From a virus (lineage: Duplodnaviria; Heunggongvirae; Uroviricota; Caudoviricetes), in the IMG/VR virus record IMGVR_UViG_2711768002_000004: DNA of 39,841 bases; one strand, 5' to 3'. The position numbers and the translations under genes were made by a program. Shown piece after piece: positions 154 to 29,623 of the stretch. A model generated the notes under the pieces. That model did no database searches. It was given only the letters and a program-made list of their open reading frames with translations, and had not been told where the DNA came from. Each line of letters begins with the position of its first letter. Positions within the stretch are counted from its first letter, which is position 1.

Positions 154-560
154 GTAAGCGTGCAGCAAGAACCGTATTGACGGGAATGTGTTATTCAGTC
201 GGCAGTGCTACGCGCCAGGGGAGCAGTTCGCCGACCCGGTTTATCGGCCAGTCGGCTATGACGTCAAGGACATAGCGGAGGTAGCTTTCTGGCTCCACTC
301 CGTTCAGTTTGCACGTCCCGATCAGGCTGTACAGCAGCGCTCCCCGCTCTCCTCCATGATCCGAACCGAAGAACAGGTAGTTTTTGCGGCCCAGACTGAC
401 CATCCGCAACGCATTTTCAGCGATGTTATTGTCCGCCTCAGCCCAGCCATCATCTGCATAGTACGTCAGCGCCGGCCACTGGTTCAGGGCGTATGCGAAC
501 GCTTTCGCCAGTTCTGAGTGTCGCGACAGGGTTTTCATCTTTTCACGCAGCCAGCTTTCC
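154..560 (-). mobile_element. IS66-family insertion sequence, right-hand portion (terminal repeat region plus 3' part of tnpC), cut by the N gap
   Basis: tnpC C-terminal reading frame at 191-560; GTAAGCG motif at 154-160, which I recall as the typical IS66-family terminus (from memory, not verified). Confidence 0.65.
191..560 (-). CDS. tnpC: IS66-family transposase TnpC, C-terminal fragment (frame stays open up to the gap)
   Basis: Translation MKTLSRHSELAKAFAYALNQW...DNNIAENALR...GRKNYLFFGSDHGGERGALLYSLIGTCKLNGVEPESYLRYVLDVIADWPINRVGELLPW matches the conserved C-terminus of IS66 TnpC as I recall it; N-terminal ~400 aa absent from the window. Confidence 0.85.
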
Positions 561-682
561 NNNNNNNNNNNNNNNNNNNNNNNNNNNNNNNNNNNNNNNN
601 NNNNNNNNNNNNNNNNNNNNNNNNNNNNNNNNNNNNNNNNNNNNNNNNNNNNNNNNNNNNNNNNNNNNNNNNNNNNNNNNNN
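561..682. other. Assembly gap (run of 122 N)
   Basis: Directly visible. Both the prophage right end and the tnpC N-terminal ~1.2 kb are missing, so true size is probably larger than 122 nt. Confidence 1.
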
Positions 683-690
683 TTAAGCGT

Positions 691-1428
691 TCATTCACTC
701 TCTTTCAAACCAGTTTTAACTGTTTGTGGTTTTGGGTAAGGCTGGACTTTGAATAGCTTTGTGTTAAGGCGTTTTCTGGCTCTCTTGTCCAGAAACCGGA
801 TGTAACGAAACTGACGGAATTTATGAACACTGGCTCTGTCGATATTAGCCCGCAGATGTTCACCTCGCTGTCCTCCTCGTTTGATTGCATTCTTGCAAAT
901 CTCGTGATACCACTCGCCATCAAGTTCATAGAATGTTGTTTCATGACTGCCTACATAATCAAAATTGCTTGCCTGGTACACGACACCAAGACAGCCACAA
1001 CGCTCATCTGCAAACGACTGAACCCACTGCACCTGCGGATAAAGTTGTCTGATTAGTTTGAGCGCGTAACTGATTGCCCTTGATTCGGAGTTTCTCGGCA
1101 TACAGTCATGCAGCCATAACCGGTTAAGCTCCATATATTCGCGGTTCTGCGTGCCAGTTACGACGCGTGCACCATTGTTTGGATTAAGGGCATAACCCCA
1201 TTGCATTACGCCAACCAGCTCCCGTTCTGAAAATATGCCCAGATGAAGGTAGGAATTATTTACGAAACGATGGCTGTAATGTTTATTGACGACGACCAGC
1301 CGGGCCAGCCAGCAACTTATTGTCTCAACCCGTAACTCACGGGAGCCATAACCGACGATATTGTCGTTATAGTGAATAAGTTCAGGCGTGCTGATGATAC
1401 GGGATGTAACTTGCTTTCTGTTCCCCAC
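691..1428 (-). CDS. mom: Mom-like DNA modification protein (start uncertain; GTG at 1428 with AAGGAAA upstream proposed)
   Basis: Long ORF 691-1623 overlaps com in another frame; gene position and the com overlap mirror Mu com-mom. No in-frame ATG downstream of com until far inside the ORF, so an alternative start is inferred. Confidence 0.65.
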
Positions 1429-1582
1429 GACAGGATTTCCTTGTGTATGTGGGGTGCTCTGTGGCGCTCTGAGATGTGATTTGATTGAGGGTTTTACAGC
1501 GCGGACATTTAACTTCCAGATAACTGAAGCTGGCTCGTGCCAGTAGCTTGTTACAATGTCGGCACCGTATGTTTCGATACAT
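1382..1582 (-). CDS. com: Com-like zinc-finger translational activator of mom
   Basis: [34 protein letters not shown]... has the CxxC-(17)-CxxC zinc finger and N-terminal pattern of Mu Com. Start moved to ATG at 1582 (AGGAGG 10 nt upstream); the ORF track start at 1627 is a TTG. Confidence 0.8.
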
Positions 1583-1624
1583 GGCCGCATAACCTCCTGC
1601 TTTGTTGTTGATATCTTTATCACT

Positions 1625-1720
1625 CAATCGATCGACAAAAACGATCGATTTGATTTATTTAATTGATACAACAAATAACACGAAATGTCATTAGCGAAAA
1701 TTTATGAGTTTGATCACTAA
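1625..1720 (-). promoter_or_regulatory. Putative com/mom promoter-regulatory region with clustered GATC (Dam) sites
   Basis: GATC at 1630-1633 and 1643-1646 (13 bp apart) and 1712-1715 in an AT-rich region just upstream of com; in Mu the mom promoter is controlled through upstream Dam sites and OxyR. Confidence 0.4.
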
Positions 1721-1838
1721 TTTTAAACGGTGCTGTAACGCATAAGTGCTGAATGATTGTACATTTGAATACCGCAAAGCAAACAAATCAACTAATTTAT
1801 AGAAGTCAATTGGTTAATTGCCAGCGTAAGAGGCTGCT

Positions 1839-2132
1839 ATGGACAATCATGTAACGACGAGAAATCGAAAAATGATTGAAAATGCGGAAATCTATAATGA
1901 TTATTTTTCCGATTATTCAGATGCCTGCAAATACAGTTCGAGTGCGGGAGAGTTCATATGCTTCAACTTTTTTATTAAATCTTATGTTTTTCCTCCACAG
2001 CAAGAAGATGGAGGTGTGCCACCTCCTGAAATCACTTTGCACCGTATAGCCTCCGTCTCAATGATGGAGCAACAGGCTAATGAGCTGTATAGCATTCTGG
2101 GAACGATTCTACAAAAGCGTGAATCGGACTAA
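1839..2132 (+). CDS. Hypothetical protein (97 aa), plus strand, divergent from com
   Basis: ORF with AAGAGG 7 nt upstream of ATG; AT-rich; no recognisable motif. Confidence 0.3.
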   Translation: MDNHVTTRNRKMIENAEIYNDYFSDYSDACKYSSSAGEFICFNFFIKSYVFPPQQEDGGVPPPEITLHRIASVSMMEQQANELYSILGTILQKRESD

Positions 2133-2299
2133 TGATACCGGTTCATTTGCCTGCCCGGATGGGGAAGCAGGATTGACTGCTCCATAAGCAGCTATATTTC
2201 TGAATACGAAATACTATCCAGCGATTACATATGGCTGGATAGCGGCAAAGATGTTTTCATTAGTGTCAAACCGGCAGAGGACACCACCGGTTTGTATTG

Positions 2300-2554
2300 T
2301 TACATCATGGTACTGTCAGTTCCGGGCTGAGCCGGGTCTGGTTGCTCTGGCTGCGCGTCGGTTTTCGGCTCATTATCAGCATCACTGGCCGCAACTGCTG
2401 GCCCAATAAGTTTTGCCAGCACTTCATCAACGTAAGTGTCGATTTGTGCCTCAAAATCCTTGCGGACCTGCGCTTTCAGCAACTTATTTACTTCACCGGA
2501 ATACAGTGCCTGTTTTACCAGGTCTTCAGTGACGGTGCCTTTAATTTCTGGCAT
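2300..2554 (-). CDS. Hypothetical protein (84 aa), acidic/Pro-rich C-terminus
   Basis: ORF with strong AAGGAGG Shine-Dalgarno upstream of ATG at 2554; part of the cargo locus between gin and com. Confidence 0.55.
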   Translation of the reverse strand: MPEIKGTVTEDLVKQALYSGEVNKLLKAQVRKDFEAQIDTYVDEVLAKLIGPAVAASDADNEPKTDAQPEQPDPAQPGTDSTMM

Positions 2555-2589
2555 GTATATCCTCCTTATGCGGGAATAAAGCCCTGCAA

Positions 2590-2772
2590 TCAGGGCTGGG
2601 TCGGGTCTTTTGGGAGCGGAGTTACCTGCGCTGTTTTACTGAGTTTTTCAGCTGCTGCGTCCTCAATTTTGCGGCGAACATAATTTCTGATGGCCTTATA
2701 ACCACCACTCACCAGATATAACGCACATACTGCCGTGCAGAAATACAATAAAATAAGCTGTAAAAATGTCAT
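2590..2772 (-). CDS. Small membrane protein (60 aa, one predicted TM helix)
   Basis: MTFLQLILLYFCTAVCALYLVSGGYKAIRNYVRRK...; start moved to ATG at 2772 preceded by GGGAGGG. Confidence 0.55.
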   Translation of the reverse strand: MTFLQLILLYFCTAVCALYLVSGGYKAIRNYVRRKIEDAAAEKLSKTAQVTPLPKDPTQP

Positions 2773-2787
2773 TATCCCTCCCAATTA

Positions 2788-2814
2788 TTGACATGGTGTT
2801 GACACCGGTAATAT
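2788..2814 (+). promoter_or_regulatory. Candidate sigma70-like promoter / direct TTGACA repeat
   Basis: TTGACA at 2788-2793 and 2799-2804, TAATAT at 2809-2814 (15-bp spacer from the first hexamer). Suboptimal spacing; could equally be a regulator binding site. Confidence 0.3.
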
Positions 2815-2868
2815 CTGTTAGGTAAAAAGGTGCACTGCATTTTTTGCTTTGGATATAACGATCTTTTT

Positions 2869-2910
2869 GCCGCCGGTTTCTTGTTTTCCCTTACCGGCGG
2901 CATTTTTTTA
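2869..2910 (+). terminator. Rho-independent terminator (9-bp GC stem, 15-nt loop, 7-U tail on plus strand)
   Basis: GCCGCCGGT...ACCGGCGGC followed by ATTTTTTT; lies 7 bp beyond the esterase stop. On the minus strand the hairpin is followed by AAAAAG, so only plus-strand termination looks canonical. Confidence 0.6.
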
Positions 2911-2916
2911 TCCTGC

Positions 2917-4971
2917 TTACGCGTTATTCACTTCCACCACGATACTGTCAATCAGTACCGGGTAAGTCGCATTTTTAGTGATATCGGTCACGCGCAACTT
3001 GTCTGCCGTAAACGTGCCGACCGGAGACTGCGACAGCATGAATGGTGTCCCGTCCTTACCATCAATGACCGGCGTCACCTCAATACTGTTGTTACCGGCA
3101 AAACGGAAGCCCAGCGTATGCCATTCGTTATTAAATGCGCCGAATGACCCCAGCTTCGTGTTCTGCGCCGTGTTTCCTTTGTGATACATCACGTTAAGGT
3201 CTGTGGCATCGCTCTGTACGTAGAACGATGCCAGCAGGTTATGACCGGCATTTCCTTCCAGAGTAACCCCTTGCGGCAGGGCAGAAACCGGCCAGTACAG
3301 CGCCAGTGCGTACTGATTAGCCGTAAGCGCGCCATCGAGTTTAAAACGACAACTGACAAGACCACCTTTACCCAGCAGGTCCGCACCATTACCAGCATCA
3401 TGCTCAAGGTACCAGGGGGCTCTTCCTGTTTCCTTGGTCAGTTTCATTGCCTTACCCCCGCTGGCTCCGGCATCATCCACGATTTGAGCCTTGCCACCTC
3501 CGGCAGCCCAACCCTGTGGTGTCAACCGTCCTTCAGACTCAGATGCCCGGTAAGCAAATAGCGTACTCATCGTCGTGGTGTCTGCGGGTGGCGTGGACGG
3601 TTTTGATGGTGTATCAGGTGACGGCTTCTCATCCGGTGGTGTCACGGTCTGCCCACGCATCAGTTCAGCCGTGCGCCCTGCATGGAGCATAATAGCTGAG
3701 GCCAGACGGTCTGAAATGACGCCCCTGCGTGCCCATGAGCTGAAATGGCTGTCACGCTGTGTCGAAACAAAACTGCCCTGGGTTCGGGATGCTGCACCGT
3801 AATACCCGACAGCCACAATATCCGGGTCTTCCGCCGGAGCATTCGTTGGCGTGCTCTGTCCATTCTCATCCGTCAGGAACGGTACAAAGAAAATTTTCTG
3901 TGCTTCCTTGCCTTTGTAGCCACCGTATACTGCCTCATATTTATCGGTGCCAGCGTTTTTCCAGTAATACGTGGTATCACCGCAAATCCACGGCACCGTG
4001 GTGGCATTTCCACTCACGCACTGCGCAGCAAGCGGAGCCAGGTCAGTTCTGAACTGCTGAACCATGGCCGTGAATAAACTATTATGCTGCTGGCTTCCTG
4101 AGGCAAGGTCTGCCTCTCCCTGCATCCAGACCACAGCCAGAAGTTTGTTTTTCGGGTTTTTCGCCAGCGCGACTTTGGTGCGGCTTACCAGGTCCTGATA
4201 CAGAGGTTTACCGGCCCCCCAGCGTGAAGAATCAGCGGAAGCACCGCTGGCCTCACTGAATGAGCCGTCGGCTCCAGTGGTGAATGCTGACCCGCCACGA
4301 CAACAGGGCACCAGAAGTATCCCGGCATTCTGTGGGATATAGGGAAGCAGTTTTTTGGCAATATGCAACCCCTGACCGACAGTCCCGTACTGGCCTTTTG
4401 CCAGATCAGCTTTCGGGTGGTTTATCCCGCTCATATCCTGAACATCATGCAGGCAGTGGTCTGCCGGAATGATGTCGTTGTATGTACACGACGTACCGTT
4501 GGGCGTTACCGTACTGCGGCGTGCCAGTTGCTTAATGCGTGGGTCCGGGCGGTCAAACGAATCCGGTAACGGCAGCCCCTCGCCGTAGGCCATGCCATTT
4601 GACTGACCCGCGAGAATGACAACAAAGTAATATTCCGGCTCTGAACTGCTGCCATTCGTGCTACCGGAAGGCCCGGCGTTATCCGGTGCATTCCAGTCGG
4701 AGGGCGTGAGCGTTCCGGCCACGTCAGATGTGATTGGAATGATGCCAGTCACGCCTGAACTGGTGATTTCTGCACTGGGATTACCGGATACCGGCATTAC
4801 CCATAATGGCTCTTTCGTGCTGAAGCGGATCACGCAGTCTGCGAAGGTGATCCCCCCTTTATTACCCGAAGGGCGGAAAGGGCTTTCAATAAATGCCACC
4901 GTGCCACCGGCAACCTTGACTGAAAACTCTCCGGGCATGGCGGAGAGCATTTTCCACTTGGAGTCTGACAT
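2917..4971 (-). CDS. Large cargo protein (684 aa) with SGNH / sialate-O-acetylesterase-like (DUF303-type) esterase motifs; putative carbohydrate O-acetyl esterase
   Basis: Motifs YFVVILAGQSNGMAYGEG (GQSN block) and AVVWMQGEAD (QGE block) recalled as typical of the family; Ser/Thr/Pro-rich linker and Gly-rich C-terminal ~250 aa. Sits where Mu has no gene (between gin and com). Confidence 0.6.
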   Translation of the reverse strand: MSDSKWKMLSAMPGEFSVKVAGGTVAFIESPFRPSGNKGGITFADCVIRFSTKEPLWVMPVSGNPSAEITSSGVTGIIPITSDVAGTLTPSDWNAPDNAGPSGSTNGSSSEPEYYFVVILAGQSNGMAYGEGLPLPDSFDRPDPRIKQLARRSTVTPNGTSCTYNDIIPADHCLHDVQDMSGINHPKADLAKGQYGTVGQGLHIAKKLLPYIPQNAGILLVPCCRGGSAFTTGADGSFSEASGASADSSRWGAGKPLYQDLVSRTKVALAKNPKNKLLAVVWMQGEADLASGSQQHNSLFTAMVQQFRTDLAPLAAQCVSGNATTVPWICGDTTYYWKNAGTDKYEAVYGGYKGKEAQKIFFVPFLTDENGQSTPTNAPAEDPDIVAVGYYGAASRTQGSFVSTQRDSHFSSWARRGVISDRLASAIMLHAGRTAELMRGQTVTPPDEKPSPDTPSKPSTPPADTTTMSTLFAYRASESEGRLTPQGWAAGGGKAQIVDDAGASGGKAMKLTKETGRAPWYLEHDAGNGADLLGKGGLVSCRFKLDGALTANQYALALYWPVSALPQGVTLEGNAGHNLLASFYVQSDATDLNVMYHKGNTAQNTKLGSFGAFNNEWHTLGFRFAGNNSIEVTPVIDGKDGTPFMLSQSPVGTFTADKLRVTDITKNATYPVLIDSIVVEVNNA

Positions 4972-5056
4972 CGTCTTTTCTGCCTGTTTCTGAATTAAAC
5001 AGAGTCAGAATAGCGACCGCTGAAAAATATGTGTTTTGCGGAAATTCAAAAAAGCG

Positions 5057-5629
5057 TCACGGTACTTTTGGTGACGGAGCTGGTGAGGCAGGAAAATAAC
5101 GATAAAGGGTGGAAAGGCCAATATCAAATATCAGTGCGATTTGTTTACGGGACTCGCCATTAGCCAGCAAACGGGCGATTTGCTCCCGCTCTTTCTCTGT
5201 CAGTTTCTGAGGTCTGCCGCCATGACGCCCCTGAGCACGGGCAGCAGCAAGACCCGCGCGTGTACGTTCAATAATGAGTTCCCGCTCCATTTCCGCCAGC
5301 GCGCCCATTATATGGAAAAAGAAACGTCCCATGGGAGTGGATGTATCAATATTGTCCGTAATGCTGCGGAAGTTAACGCCGCGTTGCCGGAGTTCTTCTG
5401 TTAAAAGGACAAGGTGCTGCATACTGCGTCCAAGGCGATCCAGTTTCCAGACCAGCAGGGTATCCCCTGGCCGGAGTCGCTTTAATGCGCGTTTAAGTCC
5501 GGGACGCTCCCTTGTCTTACCGCTTATTCTGTCTTCGAAAAACAGCTCACATCCTGCACATTCCAGCGCATTTCTTTGTAGCGCCGTATTCTGGTCATTT
5601 GTTGACACCCTGATATACCCAATCAGCAT
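5057..5629 (-). CDS. gin: Serine recombinase DNA invertase (Gin/Hin/Pin/Cin family)
   Basis: MLIGYIRVSTNDQNTALQ...VWKLDRLGRSMQHL...MGRFFFHIMGALAEMERELIIERT...STLYRYF: catalytic Ser region and C-terminal HTH of the Gin family; adjacent to the invertible tail-fibre segment. Confidence 0.9.
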   Translation of the reverse strand: MLIGYIRVSTNDQNTALQRNALECAGCELFFEDRISGKTRERPGLKRALKRLRPGDTLLVWKLDRLGRSMQHLVLLTEELRQRGVNFRSITDNIDTSTPMGRFFFHIMGALAEMERELIIERTRAGLAAARAQGRHGGRPQKLTEKEREQIARLLANGESRKQIALIFDIGLSTLYRYFPASPAPSPKVP

Positions 5630-5694
5630 ACGATTTCCTTATTATAAAAAGCCGGAATTGTCGCATGAGGAATAAAACAGAGTTAATCCTGGCT

Positions 5695-5720
5695 TTCCTG
5701 AAAACCTCGGTTTACGGGAA
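5695..5720. other. gix-like recombination site (left)
   Basis: TTCCTGAAAACC-TC-GGTTTACGGGAA resembles the Mu gix 26-bp site as recalled (TTCCTGTAAACC GA GGTTTTGGATAA); sits at the outer edge of the inverted repeat. Confidence 0.6.
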
Positions 5721-5830
5721 ACGGTAAACAGGGCGGCGAATGCTCTGCCATCGGACGGCACCGCCGTTGCCGCGAATAGACTCGCCACCCCAAGAAATAT
5801 TAATGGGGTTCCCTTTGACGGGACGCAGGA
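5703..5830. repeat. Inverted repeat, left copy, of the tail-fibre crossover region
   Basis: Reverse complement of 6902-7028 is near-identical to 5703-5778 (one mismatch seen) and to 5798-5830, with a diverged ~20-bp stretch between; compared by hand. Confidence 0.85.
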
Positions 5831-6068
5831 CATAAACATCACTTCTGGTATAACACAGCAGGATGCGGATTCCCGATATATCCAGGATATCAGGCTGGGA
5901 GCAGAGAACAGGCAGGTAATGTACGGTGGGGCATATTACTCTGCGTACGGTAATGTTATGGCAGGCCTGCAGATTGACAGTAAAGTTGATGCTTCAAACG
6001 ATTTTATAGCATTCAGACCCCTGCAAAAATTAGTCGGAGGTACATGGATTACGGTATCTCAGTTATAA
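5709..6068 (+). CDS. Alternative tail-fibre C-terminal coding segment (S'-like), currently in the silent orientation (no own start codon)
   Basis: Plus-strand frame reads ...[46 protein letters not shown]...FRPLQKLVGGTWITVSQL*; the first ~40 aa repeat the tail-fibre constant region, the tip is distinct but related to the expressed tip. Confidence 0.65.
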   Translation, partial: GLRETVNRAANALPSDGTAVAANRLATPRNINGVPFDGTQDINITSGITQQDADSRYIQDIRLGAENRQVMYGGAYYSAYGNVMAGLQIDSKVDASNDFIAFRPLQKLVGGTWITVSQL

Positions 6069-6119
6069 ATAGTCAGTAAATAATATATTTTAAAACAGAT
6101 TTATTTCCAGGAGGATTTT

Positions 6120-10231: not shown

Positions 10232-11345
10232 AGCTGATCCCCTGTTTTTTCATCTGCTGGCGAATAAAGGCATCAACATCGTCACCGGAACCACCCCGGC
10301 CCTTACTGTCCGGCTCTGCCGGAACGATAAAGCCGTCACGCGGTGCCAGTACCAGCCGGGTGACTTCCCCGTTATGTTCATCAAGTAAAAACTCCACCTG
10401 ACAGACCAGCAGTTCAGTCTGTTCTATACCGAAACGCAGGGCTGAAACACCGGTCAGCAGATTGACATCCCATAACCGGCCATCATCCCGGAACCAGCCA
10501 CGCACGGTGGCAGAAAACCGTTCTGAACGGGCAATCGCACGGCGCATTTCACGCAGGGCACGCTGCCGTGCACCGGTGGTGTCTGTCTGTTGATCGGCGA
10601 GGATGATTTTCGACCGGTAGCGGCCGATCTGCTCATCACTGATGACGCCCACAGGTGCTGCCAGACGGGCGGCGGATTCGCTGTCTCCCCGTTTGCCACC
10701 ACCGCGCCCGTGTCCCCGGACACGGTATTCGCTGTATCGTCCTCGCCAGTCCGTGTTGTAATCGGCATCAAGCAGGTTATCTCCCAGCACCAGTCTGTCC
10801 GTCTGCTGGCTTCCTGCCTGGGTGAACACCAGATCGCCGTCAGCATTACTGGTCACCAGCACCCCGCGATGCCGGGCAGCACGGGTCAGCGCATCCGCCA
10901 CGGTTTCTGAGTTTTCCAGCGTAAAAGAGCTGAAGGGGCGTGCAGCCGTGTCGTCGTTAACCTGCCAGCGCACGGCTATCCCGAAGGGCGCACATAAATC
11001 TGCGGCAATCTGTGCCAGCGTCCGGTTGCGCCACTGGCTGCCGGGATGGATGGCGGCACAGTCCACCAGGTCGCCGGTTTTATCCCGACCGCTGATGCTG
11101 ATCTGATGACGGGTTGCACTGATCCGCTGACTGACCTGATCCAGCCAGCCACTGATGACCGTCTGCCCGTTAATTCTGAGCGTCAGGGACTGACCGGTTC
11201 GCAGGGCTGAGGGGATGCGCTCACCGGGCAGCATCAGCCCCAGTTCAAACGACCCGGCCAGATGCTCCAGCGAGCGACGGACGCTGACCGTCAGCCAGCC
11301 GGAAAAAATACTGCCACCGATATACAGTTCAATCCTGCTGCTCAC
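10221..11345 (-). CDS. Baseplate hub / tail protein (Mu gp44-like, P2 gpD-like)
   Basis: 374 aa; MSSRIELYIGGSIFSGWL... ; position after the DNA circulation gene. Confidence 0.7.
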   Translation of the reverse strand: MSSRIELYIGGSIFSGWLTVSVRRSLEHLAGSFELGLMLPGERIPSALRTGQSLTLRINGQTVISGWLDQVSQRISATRHQISISGRDKTGDLVDCAAIHPGSQWRNRTLAQIAADLCAPFGIAVRWQVNDDTAARPFSSFTLENSETVADALTRAARHRGVLVTSNADGDLVFTQAGSQQTDRLVLGDNLLDADYNTDWRGRYSEYRVRGHGRGGGKRGDSESAARLAAPVGVISDEQIGRYRSKIILADQQTDTTGARQRALREMRRAIARSERFSATVRGWFRDDGRLWDVNLLTGVSALRFGIEQTELLVCQVEFLLDEHNGEVTRLVLAPRDGFIVPAEPDSKGRGGSGDDVDAFIRQQMKKQGISFDE

Positions 11346-12687
11346 TGATCACCTCCACGCTGCGGCCACCCGGAACAAAAACCGGATCGGGGATATTGTT
11401 TCTGCGGACAAAATACTGCCAGCGACTGCTGTTGCCGGTGGCACGGTACAGCGTGACCAGTGCCGGTTCGGTGGTGCGAACCATGACCTGAAAAGCACCG
11501 GGAAGATGCACGCTCCGTGTGGTTAAATCTTCTGTCAGCGCAAGCCCTGCATCACGTAATGCAAGGGCAGTCCCGGTATAGCCCTGTGCGGACAGATCCA
11601 GCACCTGTTGTTCCATGGCATCGCTCAAATCCCGGTTGATACGCTGCACATCAGCAGAACTTTCCAGCCAGGCCAGTCCGCCCGAACGGTCAGTATCCTG
11701 AACGTGCGTCGTATTCTGCCGGATGACCTGATCCAGCAGTTTTCCGAGCGTCTGTGCCTGCGACACCAGGGTTGCACTCTGCATCACGCTCCGCAGCAGA
11801 CGGATATTTTTCTGTGCCGCAGGCGTCAGGCCAATCAGGCGCTGTGGATCATCCTGTTCGCTGAGGGTGTAACGCAGGGAGGAAAGTGTGCGGTACAGCT
11901 GCGGCATGGCCTGCTCTGCCATGCTGTCACGGTTTGTGGTCAGGCTGCCGGACGGCGTTCCGGCTTTTCCGGTCAGAGACAGGGAAGGATCGCCGGGCAG
12001 CCCGGTCAGCACGGCAAACATTCCGGCCAGCGATTCAGCCATGCGACGGGGCGCATTAATCAGGGCGGCGGCATTGCCTTTCAGGGCAGTAAAACTGGCC
12101 GTAAAGGCACTGATATCCTGCACAATCCCCATCCCCGAAACGGCATTCTCCAGTGCATCAATCTTATCGCTGATGGTGTCGGTCATGGCCTGTACATCAT
12201 GCAGACCGTCTGAAATCACCGTCCAGCCGTCTGAAAGCGTGTTAAACAGCTGATTCATTGCTGAGCCGCTTTTCTGCTCCAGCGCAGCTGCCGTATCTTC
12301 TGCCACCGCAGGGGCGGTATCGTCACTGGCGGGGATCACGTTGATCGTGAACTCAACCGTTCCCTGCTCGCTGGCGTTATAACGGCTTTCAAAGCTGTTT
12401 ATCAGCACGTTTAACGTGCCGTAATCCGGGTGCATCAGTTCACCGGCACCGGGTGCACGCAGCGCATCACGCAGGCGGCTTCGCTGTGTCTGAAGATCGT
12501 CTCCGGTCACCAGAACCGTGAATGTGAACTCCGGGAGTTTTGGCCCCAGATCATCCGCACCGCCGCTTTCACGCAGTGGGTATTCACGGCGCACAATGTT
12601 ACGTCCGCCCCGTTCCCGCTGCTCCTGATAAACCAGGAACGGTACGCCACGAAAGGAGCCACGCCCCGGCGTGTCAGTAGAGGCCAT
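11329..12687 (-). CDS. DNA circulation protein (Mu gp43-like)
   Basis: 452 aa directly downstream of the tape measure gene. Confidence 0.7.
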   Translation of the reverse strand: MASTDTPGRGSFRGVPFLVYQEQRERGGRNIVRREYPLRESGGADDLGPKLPEFTFTVLVTGDDLQTQRSRLRDALRAPGAGELMHPDYGTLNVLINSFESRYNASEQGTVEFTINVIPASDDTAPAVAEDTAAALEQKSGSAMNQLFNTLSDGWTVISDGLHDVQAMTDTISDKIDALENAVSGMGIVQDISAFTASFTALKGNAAALINAPRRMAESLAGMFAVLTGLPGDPSLSLTGKAGTPSGSLTTNRDSMAEQAMPQLYRTLSSLRYTLSEQDDPQRLIGLTPAAQKNIRLLRSVMQSATLVSQAQTLGKLLDQVIRQNTTHVQDTDRSGGLAWLESSADVQRINRDLSDAMEQQVLDLSAQGYTGTALALRDAGLALTEDLTTRSVHLPGAFQVMVRTTEPALVTLYRATGNSSRWQYFVRRNNIPDPVFVPGGRSVEVISEQQD

Positions 12688-18886: not shown

Positions 18887-19834
18887 TTACAGATAATCCG
18901 CGACAACCAGCTCCAGCTTGCCCTTCATCTCGTTAGAGACTGTGGCGTTACCGTCTGCGAACAGCTCGCGCTCCAGCAGCTGCACCGCCTGTTTTTCCAG
19001 CGAGGTGGGGACAACAATATGGGTGGGTTTGATGCCGAGTTTGCGGCCACCGTCAGCCTTAAAGTCACGCATGGCTGACCAGCCGTGCCACAGCGCATCC
19101 AGCGTCAGCGGTGACTGCATCATGTAGGCCATCTGCCAGAAGCCGTAGCCCACATTGCGACGGGCGGAAGCACCGAACACAAACTCGTTATCAGTAAACG
19201 CACGGCCTTCATCGACTTTTGTCTGGGCAACCAGTTCGGCTTTGCGGCGATCCTGATAAATCAGCGGTTTTACCGCGCGGGAGCAGTCAAGCAGATACCA
19301 GGCCGGGCCGCTGTAATCCGCCTGTGCACCGACAGAGCCGGTTTTTGCCACAAACATATTGCTGACCATCTGTGCATCACCGGAGCCATCCACTTTGGGG
19401 TAAACAGGGTGTTCGGTATCAAAGAAGTTCTGGCCGTCATAGCAGGCCGCATTCAGACCATCACGCAGTGCAGCAAAGACCAGTTCATCCGGTTGTGCCG
19501 CAGCGGCACGACCCATTTCCTGGAATAACGGGGAGTAGATGCCGAGATTGTCGTCTTCAAAGTCATCGCGGCTAATGGCAACGGTGCCTTCAAAGGTTTT
19601 GTTCACGATGGCGTAGCCATAGGCTTTCATCTTCTCGATGACGCGGGAGCCGATCCACTCACGGAACTGCGGGAACTGCCCCAGCCAGCCGTAGGTGTTG
19701 GATTTCGAGGTGGACGGCACGGTCATCGCAATTTTCTGGTACTGCGACGGAGCCATGGACATCCCGGCCTGAAAATCAGAACGGTAGCCCGTCATCAGGG
19801 CGGTGATCATCGCCGGTGTAATCGGGGTAGGCAT
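18887..19834 (-). CDS. Major head (capsid) subunit (Mu T-like)
   Basis: 315 aa; follows the protease/scaffold gene. Confidence 0.8.
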   Translation of the reverse strand: MPTPITPAMITALMTGYRSDFQAGMSMAPSQYQKIAMTVPSTSKSNTYGWLGQFPQFREWIGSRVIEKMKAYGYAIVNKTFEGTVAISRDDFEDDNLGIYSPLFQEMGRAAAAQPDELVFAALRDGLNAACYDGQNFFDTEHPVYPKVDGSGDAQMVSNMFVAKTGSVGAQADYSGPAWYLLDCSRAVKPLIYQDRRKAELVAQTKVDEGRAFTDNEFVFGASARRNVGYGFWQMAYMMQSPLTLDALWHGWSAMRDFKADGGRKLGIKPTHIVVPTSLEKQAVQLLERELFADGNATVSNEMKGKLELVVADYL

Positions 19835-20967: not shown

Positions 20968-21144
20968 ACCGGCAGCATAAGCCGGGTATTTTTGGGGCTG
21001 GTTTTGCGGGACTTCAGAAAGTGCTGACAGGGGGGGAATGAGAAAGGCGCTTCACGCAGATTTTAAAGCCCGTTAAATACAGGTTAGAAAATCACGACAC
21101 GCGCCTGAAGGGGGTAAGGTAATACGTTTGCATACCTTAAACCA

Positions 21145-28628: not shown

Positions 28629-29129
28629 TCAGACTTTCGGCAAATCGTAACGACATAACCATTCATCCGCCGAACGGCGGGCCTCAAGACCGGGGAGTTT
28701 TACCCCCTTTGAATAAATCCAGCGGATATACTGCTTACAGGACGCGGGCATCTGCCCGGCATTGATAAGGCGCAGGAGCGTGGAGTTGCGAAAGTTCGTT
28801 TCACCGGCCCAGAAAATCCAGGAGGCCAGCGCCACCGTCTGACCACGGGTAAGCGGCACCTGAACATGACGATCGATAGCCGCAAAGGCCCATTTCATGT
28901 CCTTTTCCAGCAGCTCCAGACACTCTTCATCAGTTTTTGTCATCCCCGGTTTCACATCCGGGCCGGTATGGCCGTAACAGATGGTGGGGGTGCCGGTGGG
29001 ATCAATGTACGTGGTGTTTTCTTTCCCTTCCCAGTAGCCGGTGTAGTGCGTGGCAATGGTGAACGTCCCGGCTCCGGCCAGAACAAGGGCAATCAGCTTT
29101 TTACGCAGGGGTGCGGGGAGTTTTGGCAT
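28629..29129 (-). CDS. SAR-endolysin (lysozyme with N-terminal signal-anchor-release domain)
   Basis: N-terminal hydrophobic LIALVLAGAGTFTIA, then YWEGKENTTYIDPTGTPTICYGHTG (Glu-Asp-Thr catalytic spacing of T4/lambda-type lysozymes). Confidence 0.8.
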   Translation of the reverse strand: MPKLPAPLRKKLIALVLAGAGTFTIATHYTGYWEGKENTTYIDPTGTPTICYGHTGPDVKPGMTKTDEECLELLEKDMKWAFAAIDRHVQVPLTRGQTVALASWIFWAGETNFRNSTLLRLINAGQMPASCKQYIRWIYSKGVKLPGLEARRSADEWLCRYDLPKV

Positions 29130-29200: not shown

Positions 29201-29623
29201 TCAGAAAAGCCGTGGCTGCGTGCGTTCCTGATGCAGGCGACGCTGGTTGCGGATAACGGAGTAAATCTGCGTCTCTGACATCTGGTAGTGGCGGCGCAGG
29301 GTTTCAATTTTTTCGCCCTGGCTCCAGCGGGAAAAAATTTCATTATTGCGCAGTTCGGTGAAAAGGGATTCACCGACCGGGAGATAATAACCACGCCCGC
29401 CCATGTACCCGGCCTGTGCGGCTGCAACCTTACGGGCAAGCATTCCCGCCTGAGCAGGTTCAATCCCCTGACGGTGCAGTTCAGCACTGATCACATCAAC
29501 CAGGTCCCGCAGCGTGCCGGGCCAGTTCTTTTTCAGCTCATCATCAGGAATATCATCCAGACGGTCAATCAGCGCGTGCAGCTGTTCGCTGTCACCAAAC
29601 ATGCTCATCTGTGTTTCAGCCAT
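29201..29623 (-). CDS. Mor/C-family transcriptional activator (single copy; positioned like Mu C, directly upstream of the lysis genes)
   Basis: 140 aa; C-terminal ...GGRGYYLPVGESLFTELRNNEIFSRWSQGEKIETLRRHYQMSETQIYSVIRNQRR matches the Mor/C family pattern as recalled. Confidence 0.8.
   Translation of the reverse strand: MAETQMSMFGDSEQLHALIDRLDDIPDDELKKNWPGTLRDLVDVISAELHRQGIEPAQAGMLARKVAAAQAGYMGGRGYYLPVGESLFTELRNNEIFSRWSQGEKIETLRRHYQMSETQIYSVIRNQRRLHQERTQPRLF

Follow-up and report, generated by a model that had tools for sequence, protein, structure and literature searches.

NanS-p proteins form a known family of prophage sialate O-acetylesterases, among them L0105 (z1466) of phage 933W and gp84 (vb_24B_21) of phage phi24B. 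The NanS-p proteins of Escherichia coli EDL933 and O104:H4 are active Neu5,9Ac2 esterases that de-O-acetylate mucin glycans and support growth on Neu5,9Ac2 (PMC8065619; PMC5923452), and the family is thought to help enterohemorrhagic E. coli feed on O-acetylated mucin sialic acids. In phi24B gp84, according to a 2026 preprint, DUF1737 hexamers sit on the central capsid hexons, and the esterase part is then cleaved off (bioRxiv 10.64898/2026.04.10.717836). Here, we examine a nanS-p-type gene in the IMG/VR virus record IMGVR_UViG_2711768002_000004, a stretch of 39,841 nucleotides (nt) that we call the window. It holds a complete Mu-like prophage in reverse, with the repressor and transposase A/B genes at ~35-39 kb followed by the head and tail genes and, at the left, by gin, com, and mom. 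The enzyme family, its domains, and its small neighbors are already known. What appear to be undescribed so far are its setting in a Mu-like phage, the exchanged N-terminal domain, and the late-promoter element, and a literature search found no paper joining "nanS-p" with "Mu-like."

A nanS-p cassette between gin and com

Three co-directional minus-strand open reading frames (ORFs) of 684, 60, and 84 amino acids (aa) lie in the ~3.4 kb that separate gin from com/mom (Table 1). From the gin stop to the com start, the window measures 3474 bp, compared with 94 bp in phage Mu (NC_000929), which has no gene at this position. An earlier note, made from the letters of this stretch, had described just such a locus and the lack of anything like it in Mu, and both points hold. 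Since the GATC cluster 5' of Mu com aligns with the window at ~1626-1660, the DNA that is extra relative to Mu spans ~1661-5056. The gap between gin and the esterase gene is 85 bp. RefSeq annotates the same three coding sequences in identical DNA of other E. coli genomes, where the large product already bears the name "sialate O-acetylesterase" or "DUF6645 domain-containing protein." The note had also given each ORF its own ribosome-binding site; Shine-Dalgarno sequences are strong for both small genes (GGGAGGG and AAGGAGG) and weak for the 684-aa gene.

Judged by its sequence, the 684-aa protein is a member of the NanS-p family. Profile searches, which the earlier note had recommended, matched it to Pfam SASA (1.5e-13) and, over residues 71-684, to PHROG 143 (1.7e-296), and no NCBIfam model matched the esterase. 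With phmmer, residues 110-428 matched the crystal structure of E. coli NanS (YjhS; 3PT5) at an E value of 1.8e-117, and residues 469-683 matched the NanS-p C-domain structure 6YP6 at 7e-98. NanS has the blocks 17-GQSNA, 120-RGGSAF, 178-MQGEFD, and R-x-SHFS-303 and uses a main-chain carbonyl for the usual Asp (PMC10792757). These correspond one-to-one with blocks of the window protein, all of them intact: GQSNG at 122-126 (S124), RGGSAF at 225-230, MQGEAD at 283-288, and RDSHFS at 406-411 (H409). All four are kept in the query and 120 homologues, and they include the GQSN (122-125) and QGE (284-286) motifs from which an SGNH or sialate-O-acetylesterase-like enzyme had correctly been read. The SASA/SGNH domain of NanS-p, with its atypical blocks and its Ser and His residues, is thus present. 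So is the lectin-like DUF6645 domain, in which four of four aromatic residues (Y554, Y559, Y584, and F654) of the proposed sugar site (PMC10462455) are conserved.

These matches change two statements made earlier about the protein. In place of an uncharacterized polysaccharide O-acetylesterase, we find a member of the well-studied NanS-p family with its usual DUF1378 and DUF826 companions. The architecture described as tail-spike-like was right in its layout of module, linker, core, linker, and module; this is the known three-domain layout of NanS-p, and the only "tail" PHROG matches of the protein are weak ones to the SGNH core.

The two small proteins are as first described, one with a single transmembrane segment and the other acidic. 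The DUF1378 protein has one hydrophobic N-terminal transmembrane helix and an isoelectric point (pI) of 9.3, and the DUF826 protein has a pI of 4.2. DUF1378 is 53% identical to the 933W ORF that follows nanS-p, and DUF826 is 39% identical to the 933W ORF that precedes holin S. A tblastn search of phage genomes with DUF826 found only the two Mu-like inserts, so its kinship with 933W is shown by pairwise comparison and Pfam. The gene order in 933W is nanS-p (L0105), DUF1378, DUF826, and holin S, with the trio following the Shiga toxin (Stx) genes stx; in a non-Stx lambdoid prophage it is Q, methyltransferase, nanS-p, DUF1378, DUF826, and holin. The occurrence of the trio in both marks it as a portable cassette, and the window gene, too, is prophage encoded and followed by DUF1378 and DUF826. 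The lysozyme gene (28629..29129) is ~24 kb from the trio. Because the lysis genes of the Mu-like prophage are so far off, the arrangement argues that DUF1378 and DUF826 work with the esterase and not with lysis.

Table 1. Features of the gin-mom region of the window. AF2, AlphaFold2; pLDDT, predicted local distance difference test.
Feature	Position	Strand	Basis or remarks
nanS-p-type sialate O-acetylesterase gene, 684 aa, 72 kDa	2917..4971	-	ORF; Pfam SASA 1.5e-13, DUF6645 7e-68; PHROG 143; PDB 3PT5 and 6YP6
N-terminal orphan domain, residues 1-~80, predicted small all-beta cupin-like barrel, in place of DUF1737	4732..4971	-	
Linker 1, Ser/Thr/Pro/Gly-rich, residues ~81-112	4636..4731	-	AF2 pLDDT <50; recombination junction with lambdoid nanS-p alleles
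SGNH/SASA catalytic domain, residues ~113-430	3682..4635	-	phmmer against 3PT5; blocks located
Linker 2, Pro/Ser/Thr-rich, residues ~431-468	3568..3681	-	Between both PDB-matched regions; up to 100% identity to DUF1737-type proteins
C-terminal lectin-like jelly-roll domain (DUF6645), residues 469-684	2920..3567	-	6YP6 match; aromatic residues kept
DUF1378 gene, 60 aa from ATG (64 aa from upstream TTG)	2590..2772	-	Pfam DUF1378 1.2e-31; PHROG 494
DUF826 gene, 84 aa	2300..2554	-	Pfam DUF826 6e-16; PHROG 311
Late-promoter-like element TTTTTGAATTTCCGCAAAAC, 20-nt spacer, -10-like TATTCT	5007..5052	-	15/16 positions common to both reference sites
Hairpin in presumed 5' leader (CTGTTT-N7-AAACAG core), just before start codon	4978..5010	-	-9.6 kcal/mol, z -2.7; kept in both allelic types
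GC-rich hairpin in nanS-p/DUF1378 gap, no U-run on minus strand	2868..2902	-	-19.7 kcal/mol, z -5.7, 0/200 shuffles
Hairpin after DUF826, probable 3' end of three-gene unit	2267..2294	-	-16.7 kcal/mol, z -4.1, 0/200 shuffles
gin invertase gene, upstream neighbor	5057..5629	-	Pfam Resolvase and HTH_7
com, downstream neighbor	1382..1582	-	Pfam Zn_ribbon_Com
mom, downstream neighbor	691..1428	-	Pfam Mom
GATC cluster	1626-1650	-	Alignment with Mu Pmom upstream region

An orphan domain in place of DUF1737

The N-terminal DUF1737 (PF08410) of NanS-p is absent from the window protein. No Pfam family matched residues 1-112, even at E <= 10, and the best PHROG match had an E value of 0.02. Identity to DUF1737-type N-termini is 13-19%, which is the random level. 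AF2 predicts an all-beta fold for this N-domain, as against the helix and three strands of DUF1737; fold searches with the model gave weak cupin-like matches only, and no function was assigned from them.

The 1574 homologues of the protein fall into two architectures. Proteins of the first are ~680-691 aa long, cover 98-100% of the query, and are without PF08410, whereas those of the second are ~647-650 aa long, contain PF08410, and match the query only from ~residue 100. Mu-type proteins are 96-100% identical to the query in the N-domain and 81-100% in both the esterase and the C-domain. For DUF1737-type proteins, the values are 84-93% (esterase) and 81-93% (C-domain), and the N-domain is unrelated. 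In the DNA, 87% nt identity to a non-Stx lambdoid prophage runs over window 4641..2639, that is, from codon ~110 into DUF1378. Because the lambdoid identity starts at codon ~110, the junction of the domain swap is linker 1.

An exhaustive HMMER search of 1.8 billion representatives with residues 1-78 returned nine matches. Two of these (P0002 and P0003) are near-identical fragments of the same gene, and one (P0126) is truly, if distantly, homologous, with ~31% identity in the N-domain and ~40% over 146 aligned residues, and is fused, like the query, to a GQSN esterase. The remaining six were repeat-rich proteins (FN3, Kelch, SprB, and CarboxypepD_reg) and were rejected as compositional or repeat artifacts. 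A word-indexed protein search with the N-domain alone found only near-identical fragments, scanning the N-domain alignment against one genome per species yielded no confirmed locus, and no paralogue was seen among the prophage's own genes. The 34 N-domain loci in IMG/VR belong to just two allelic types (96-100% and 58-62% identity). Across these searches, the N-domain was found only in Mu-like prophages.

An upstream element and a lineage-wide cassette

The element ahead of nanS-p was otherwise found only at two reference sites of the same architecture elsewhere in the window, one at 29207(-), between a Mor/C-family activator gene (29201..29623) and lys, and one at 21020(-), between G and I, with the flanking genes identified by Pfam. 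We take these to be the positions of the Mu C-dependent late promoters Plys and PI; the Mu late promoters were reportedly described by Margolin, Rao and Howe in 1989. Scoring used only the 16 positions common to both reference sites and left out the nanS-p site. Of all matches in the window, the nanS-p element is the best; its score of 15 was reached by 0 of 200 shuffles. The spacing to the -10-like hexamer is 20-21 nt across the three sites, and nanS-p thus has before it an activator-site-like element and a -10 hexamer like those before lys and I. Each of 40 Mu-type loci has exactly one copy of the core TGAATTNNCGCAAAA, which lies ~63-80 bp 5' of the gene in the loci checked and was not found in seven others (933W, a P2-like locus, Mu, three lambdoid loci, and L044, the divergent prophage described below). 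The element is kept in both allelic types despite ~70% nt identity of the surrounding DNA. Taken together, these matches suggest that nanS-p is preceded by a C-activated late promoter, and the motif TGAATTTCCGCAAAA lies in this putative C-dependent promoter region.

A rigid 52-nt consensus of the two reference sites did not retrieve the one at nanS-p, owing to a 1-nt difference in spacing and a spacer that is not shared; the 20-nt upstream element found it. A position weight matrix that included the nanS-p site was circular and is not counted as evidence. Generic sigma-70 promoter and terminator scans of 1300-5900 gave counts no higher than those of shuffled sequence. The 5'-leader hairpin could be a translational or stability element. 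A hairpin at the end of gin was rejected as a terminator, being no better than shuffles (-6.6 kcal/mol, z -1.6; z -0.3 in L004, a Mu-like relative).

To place the cassette among relatives, we surveyed 5426 complete E. coli genomes, counting each probe separately. Window-type N-domain DNA is present in 28 genomes and DNA of the second type, which we take to be the Sp18 type, in 205, many of them O157:H7; the Mu-like gpT head gene (window 18887..19834) is present in 233. The cassette is accordingly fixed among Sp18-type Mu-like prophages of E. coli (~230/5426 genomes) and is not sporadic cargo. It is absent from the Mu/D108/SfMu lineage; in SfMu, a gin-mom amplicon of 1.5 kb leaves no room for it. 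Eleven head-gene records had 80-90% identity, and the one inspected is a Mu-proper prophage in which gin is followed directly by com-mom, with no esterase. In one carrier record, 14 kb separate the N-domain and the head gene, just like in the window, and the gene order is kept in 30 of the 31 IMG/VR loci that are long enough. Carriers sit at varied chromosomal sites (bcsA, elfC, xdhA, and near flgL), as expected of a transposable phage. Sp18, a predicted intact prophage, has its DNA packaged (PMC2669165). The earlier note would have counted it against its reading if the gene were a standard late gene of Mu-like phages; this is largely what it is in the Sp18-type lineage, where nearly every prophage carries it behind a late-type element, and not in Mu itself.

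The distant homologue P0126 comes from L044 (GCA_037428405.1), a very divergent Mu-like prophage, with baseplate proteins 26-39% and a Gin 66% identical to those of the window. Its N-domain-esterase gene again lies downstream of gin, behind two small ORFs, so that the comparison with other Mu-like prophages, as the earlier note had advised, finds the gene at the same place in both the Sp18-type lineage and L044. The two ORFs between gin and the esterase gene (L044 9426..9910) encode a 58-aa protein with a C-terminal hydrophobic helix and an 87-aa protein with a weak Xre-like helix-turn-helix match.

Several relatives depart from the window in other respects. In some Sp18-type alleles (L040-L043, IMG/VR), the C-domain is 40-46% identical to that encoded at window 2920..3567 and the N-domain ~60%; the lectin-like module shuffles independently, as reported for CTR types of Stx-phage NanS-p. 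The prophages of E. coli S1-CAM-01-A, M3, and CI5 (L002, L005, and L006) are without gin and part of the invertible tail-fiber segment (window ~5124-6098 is missing) and keep the esterase cassette and the upstream element; host-range switching is lost and the esterase retained. In E. coli JKHS016 (L001), the DNA is identical to window 1600-5700 and the cassette is intact in a degraded, rearranged prophage whose head block is inverted and whose tail, tape-measure, and protease genes are truncated.

What lies between DUF826 and com varies, with other small ORFs in L003 and L004. In the window, this slot holds a fourth ORF of the extra DNA, not listed in the earlier note, on the opposite strand, at 1839/1872..2132 (+), which encodes an acidic protein of 86-97 aa (pI 4.3) in a low-GC stretch (36-40%). 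The ORF at 1872..2132 is divergent from com and convergent with DUF826, adjoins an AT-rich region (1583..1838), and has no family match in Pfam, PHROG, NCBIfam, or PADLOC. A GATC palindrome, ATCGATCG-N7-CGATCGAT (1626..1650, -), lies only ~45 bp 5' of the com ATG, much nearer than in Mu, and upstream of it is a weak copy of the late element, TAAATTTTCGCTAAT (1690..1704, -). The mom promoter layout may differ here from that of Mu. In L004, an Sp18-type relative that lies inside the Stx2c phage LC727881, the gene after com encodes a C-5 cytosine DNA methyltransferase (10420..11472; Pfam 2e-42) and not Mom; the modification gene is swapped behind a conserved com (92% nt). In the window, a run of 122 N (561..682) right after the mom stop masks the right end of the prophage and its junction, and beyond it lies a C-terminal fragment of an IS66-family transposase (191..538, -; Pfam 1e-20 and 1.5e-17).

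Proposed role and comparison with known systems

We consider it likely that nanS-p, DUF1378, and DUF826 form a three-gene late unit of the Sp18-type Mu-like prophage, whose NanS-p esterase would be made in lytic growth, freed at lysis, and act on host sialoglycans. Given a promoter that looks like the C-activated late ones of this phage and the lack of a signal peptide, the protein would most likely be produced together with the virion proteins and exit the cell at lysis, possibly attached to particles. The SGNH core would use Ser124 and His409, with a main-chain carbonyl for the usual Asp, as in NanS, and would remove 7/8/9-O-acetyl groups from sialic acids such as Neu5,9Ac2; the C-terminal jelly-roll probably keeps the enzyme on sialoglycans such as mucin. 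Outside the cell, de-O-acetylated host sialoglycans would be open to sialidases and usable by surviving sibling lysogens, and de-O-acetylation may aid the passage of particles through mucus or their adhesion to it.

The N-domain stands where DUF1737 would and, by analogy with it, may be a phage-type-specific attachment or oligomerization module for the Mu-like particle. A fuller proposal would make it a new virion-anchoring module that shows the sialate O-acetylesterase on Mu-like myovirus particles as a functional stand-in for DUF1737, with DUF1378 and DUF826 as dedicated partners in its processing, release, or assembly. We offer this as a tentative idea that is rather doubtful as it stands.

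Several points weigh against the late-unit reading and its extension to an anchor. The activity of the window protein on sialate O-acetyl groups, which we hold to be very probable, is argued from 65% identity to NanS, and the C-activated promoter is argued from the sequence itself and from where Plys and PI lie in Mu. Since the places where PP and Pmom would be expected yielded no such element, the case for a late promoter rests on three sites. The full-length AlphaFold model of the 684-aa protein, built on an alignment that was shallow and too similar, had a mean pLDDT of 36.7 and was left unused. As to the anchor, the two allelic types share only 60% identity in the N-domain against ~93% nt identity in the head genes, so that the N-domain does not covary with the capsid protein. 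DUF1737-type NanS-p is present in P2-like myoviruses too, so that an N-domain matched to each particle type may not be needed. Finally, the G-segment, gin, and esterase genes diverge as one block (67-79% nt identity, versus 92% for other structural genes), which speaks against a simple capsid match and fits a tail-fiber partner equally well.

Such a partner would suit a particle-borne receptor-modifying enzyme, an idea raised for NanS-p in a review (PMC8065619). Here, the N-domain would dock on the tail, baseplate, or fibers, and the esterase would deacetylate polysaccharides on the bacterial surface, such as O-antigens or capsules of O-acetylated sialic acid, and aid adsorption, like the esterase tail proteins of some phages. 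The gene does lie directly after the tail-fiber, invertible-segment, and gin block with which it co-diverges, its putative promoter is of the late type, its C-domain is exchanged among relatives, with identity falling to 40%, as binding modules commonly are, and there are weak PHROG matches to SGNH-containing tail proteins. Yet the protein has no homology to tail-spike or fiber attachment domains and no beta-helix or trimeric fiber features, the phi24B homologue is on the capsid and not the tail, and the esterase and C-domains are near-identical to those of lambdoid NanS-p alleles, which are documented to act on O-acetyl sialic acids, free or bound to mucin. We therefore regard a receptor-modifying role as unlikely.

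Expression in the lysogen is a different matter. At a low level, for example through read-through from gin, it could give a metabolic moron with a cytoplasmic role like that of NanS, allowing the host to grow on imported Neu5,9Ac2. Read-through is possible in that the gene is co-directional with gin and just 85 bp away and the gin-end hairpin is weak; in NanS itself, Ser19 is so close to the N-terminus that a signal peptide would not fit, and nanS-p alleles support growth of EDL933 on Neu5,9Ac2. That growth, however, could equally stem from spontaneous induction in a few cells. The gin-less relatives keep both the cassette and the upstream element, so the cassette can do without read-through from gin, the conserved element is of the kind seen at late promoters, and the extra N- and C-domains would be superfluous for a cytoplasmic enzyme, all of which makes a moron improbable. 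Two roles raised in the earlier note fare no better: alteration of the host surface by lysogenic conversion finds no support in a protein without a signal peptide behind a late-looking promoter, and superinfection exclusion finds the same promoter and no PADLOC match (none for the esterase, DUF1378, or the plus-strand ORF, with DUF826 only at E 0.008), which leaves the genes outside the defense systems modeled there. That the locus is a decaying passenger, a horizontally acquired lambdoid fragment functionless in the Mu-like phage, is very improbable. Some carriers are degraded prophages, and lambdoid prophages match the segment from the esterase to DUF1378 at 87% nt identity, but the ORFs are intact, the catalytic residues are invariant in all homologues examined, and gene order and promoter element are kept in 40 loci. 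The cassette is moreover present in the Sp18 lineage, predicted intact and packaged (PMC2669165), and retained in a Mu-like prophage with baseplate proteins only 26-39% identical.

The locus has practical and wider consequences. About 4% of complete E. coli genomes, including many O157:H7, carry an extra nanS-p-type allele, which PCR or annotation keyed on the Stx-phage context or on DUF1737 could miss. The Mu-like version amounts to a natural domain-swap experiment, in which the same esterase and lectin module are combined with another N-module, particle, and late-gene regulator, and it separates DUF1378 and DUF826, two widespread uncharacterized prophage genes, from the lysis cassette. If the new N-domain does attach to the particle, virion display would be a selected trait and not merely a matter of release at lysis, and temperate phages would be tied to mucus ecology more generally. 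Particle-borne editing of mucin sialic acids would then be a general strategy, with unrelated temperate E. coli phages swapping only the anchor domain.

Among described systems, SGNH-esterase tail proteins and glycan-binding capsid decorations such as T4 Hoc share with the window protein only the idea of a particle-carried carbohydrate-active or carbohydrate-binding module. No sequence or fold kinship was shown beyond the SGNH core. The window protein does not have the makeup of a tail spike, with no spike or fiber adaptor match in Pfam or PHROG and a body composed of an SGNH alpha/beta fold and a jelly-roll. The right end of Mu has the same gene order on both flanks, the GATC cluster 5' of com, and a Mor/C-family activator gene beside lys; Mu, D108-like, and SfMu-like phages differ in their gin-com gap of ~94 bp and in having no esterase. 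Set against the Mu late promoters Plys, PI, PP, and Pmom, the nanS-p element matches the sites at the Plys- and PI-equivalent positions, and its sequence differs from Mu's own C site. NanS (YjhS, 3PT5) is ~65% identical over the whole catalytic domain, with the same Ser and His residues and atypical SGNH blocks, and differs in consisting of one domain (~326 aa), with no N- or C-terminal modules, and in belonging to the nan regulon and not to a phage.

The closest system remains NanS-p itself. The SASA/SGNH and DUF6645 domains are 65% identical to those of 933W and up to 93% identical to those of non-Stx lambdoid alleles, and the SGNH block variants, the aromatic sugar-site residues, the kind of Ser/Thr/Pro linker, the adjoining DUF1378 and DUF826 genes, and the prophage setting with apparently late-type expression are all shared. 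The lambdoid proteins, in contrast, begin with DUF1737 (one alpha helix and three strands), which is reported to be capsid binding in phi24B; the window protein has an unrelated all-beta domain of ~80 aa at this place and so lacks the part by which gp84 reportedly binds hexon centers. The lambdoid genes lie in a Q-dependent late operon, with Q/stx (or a substitute for stx) on one side and the holin gene on the other, served by the Q-antiterminated pR'. The present gene lies in a transposable Mu-like myovirus between gin and com/mom, behind a putative Mor/C-activated promoter and ~24 kb from the lysis genes.

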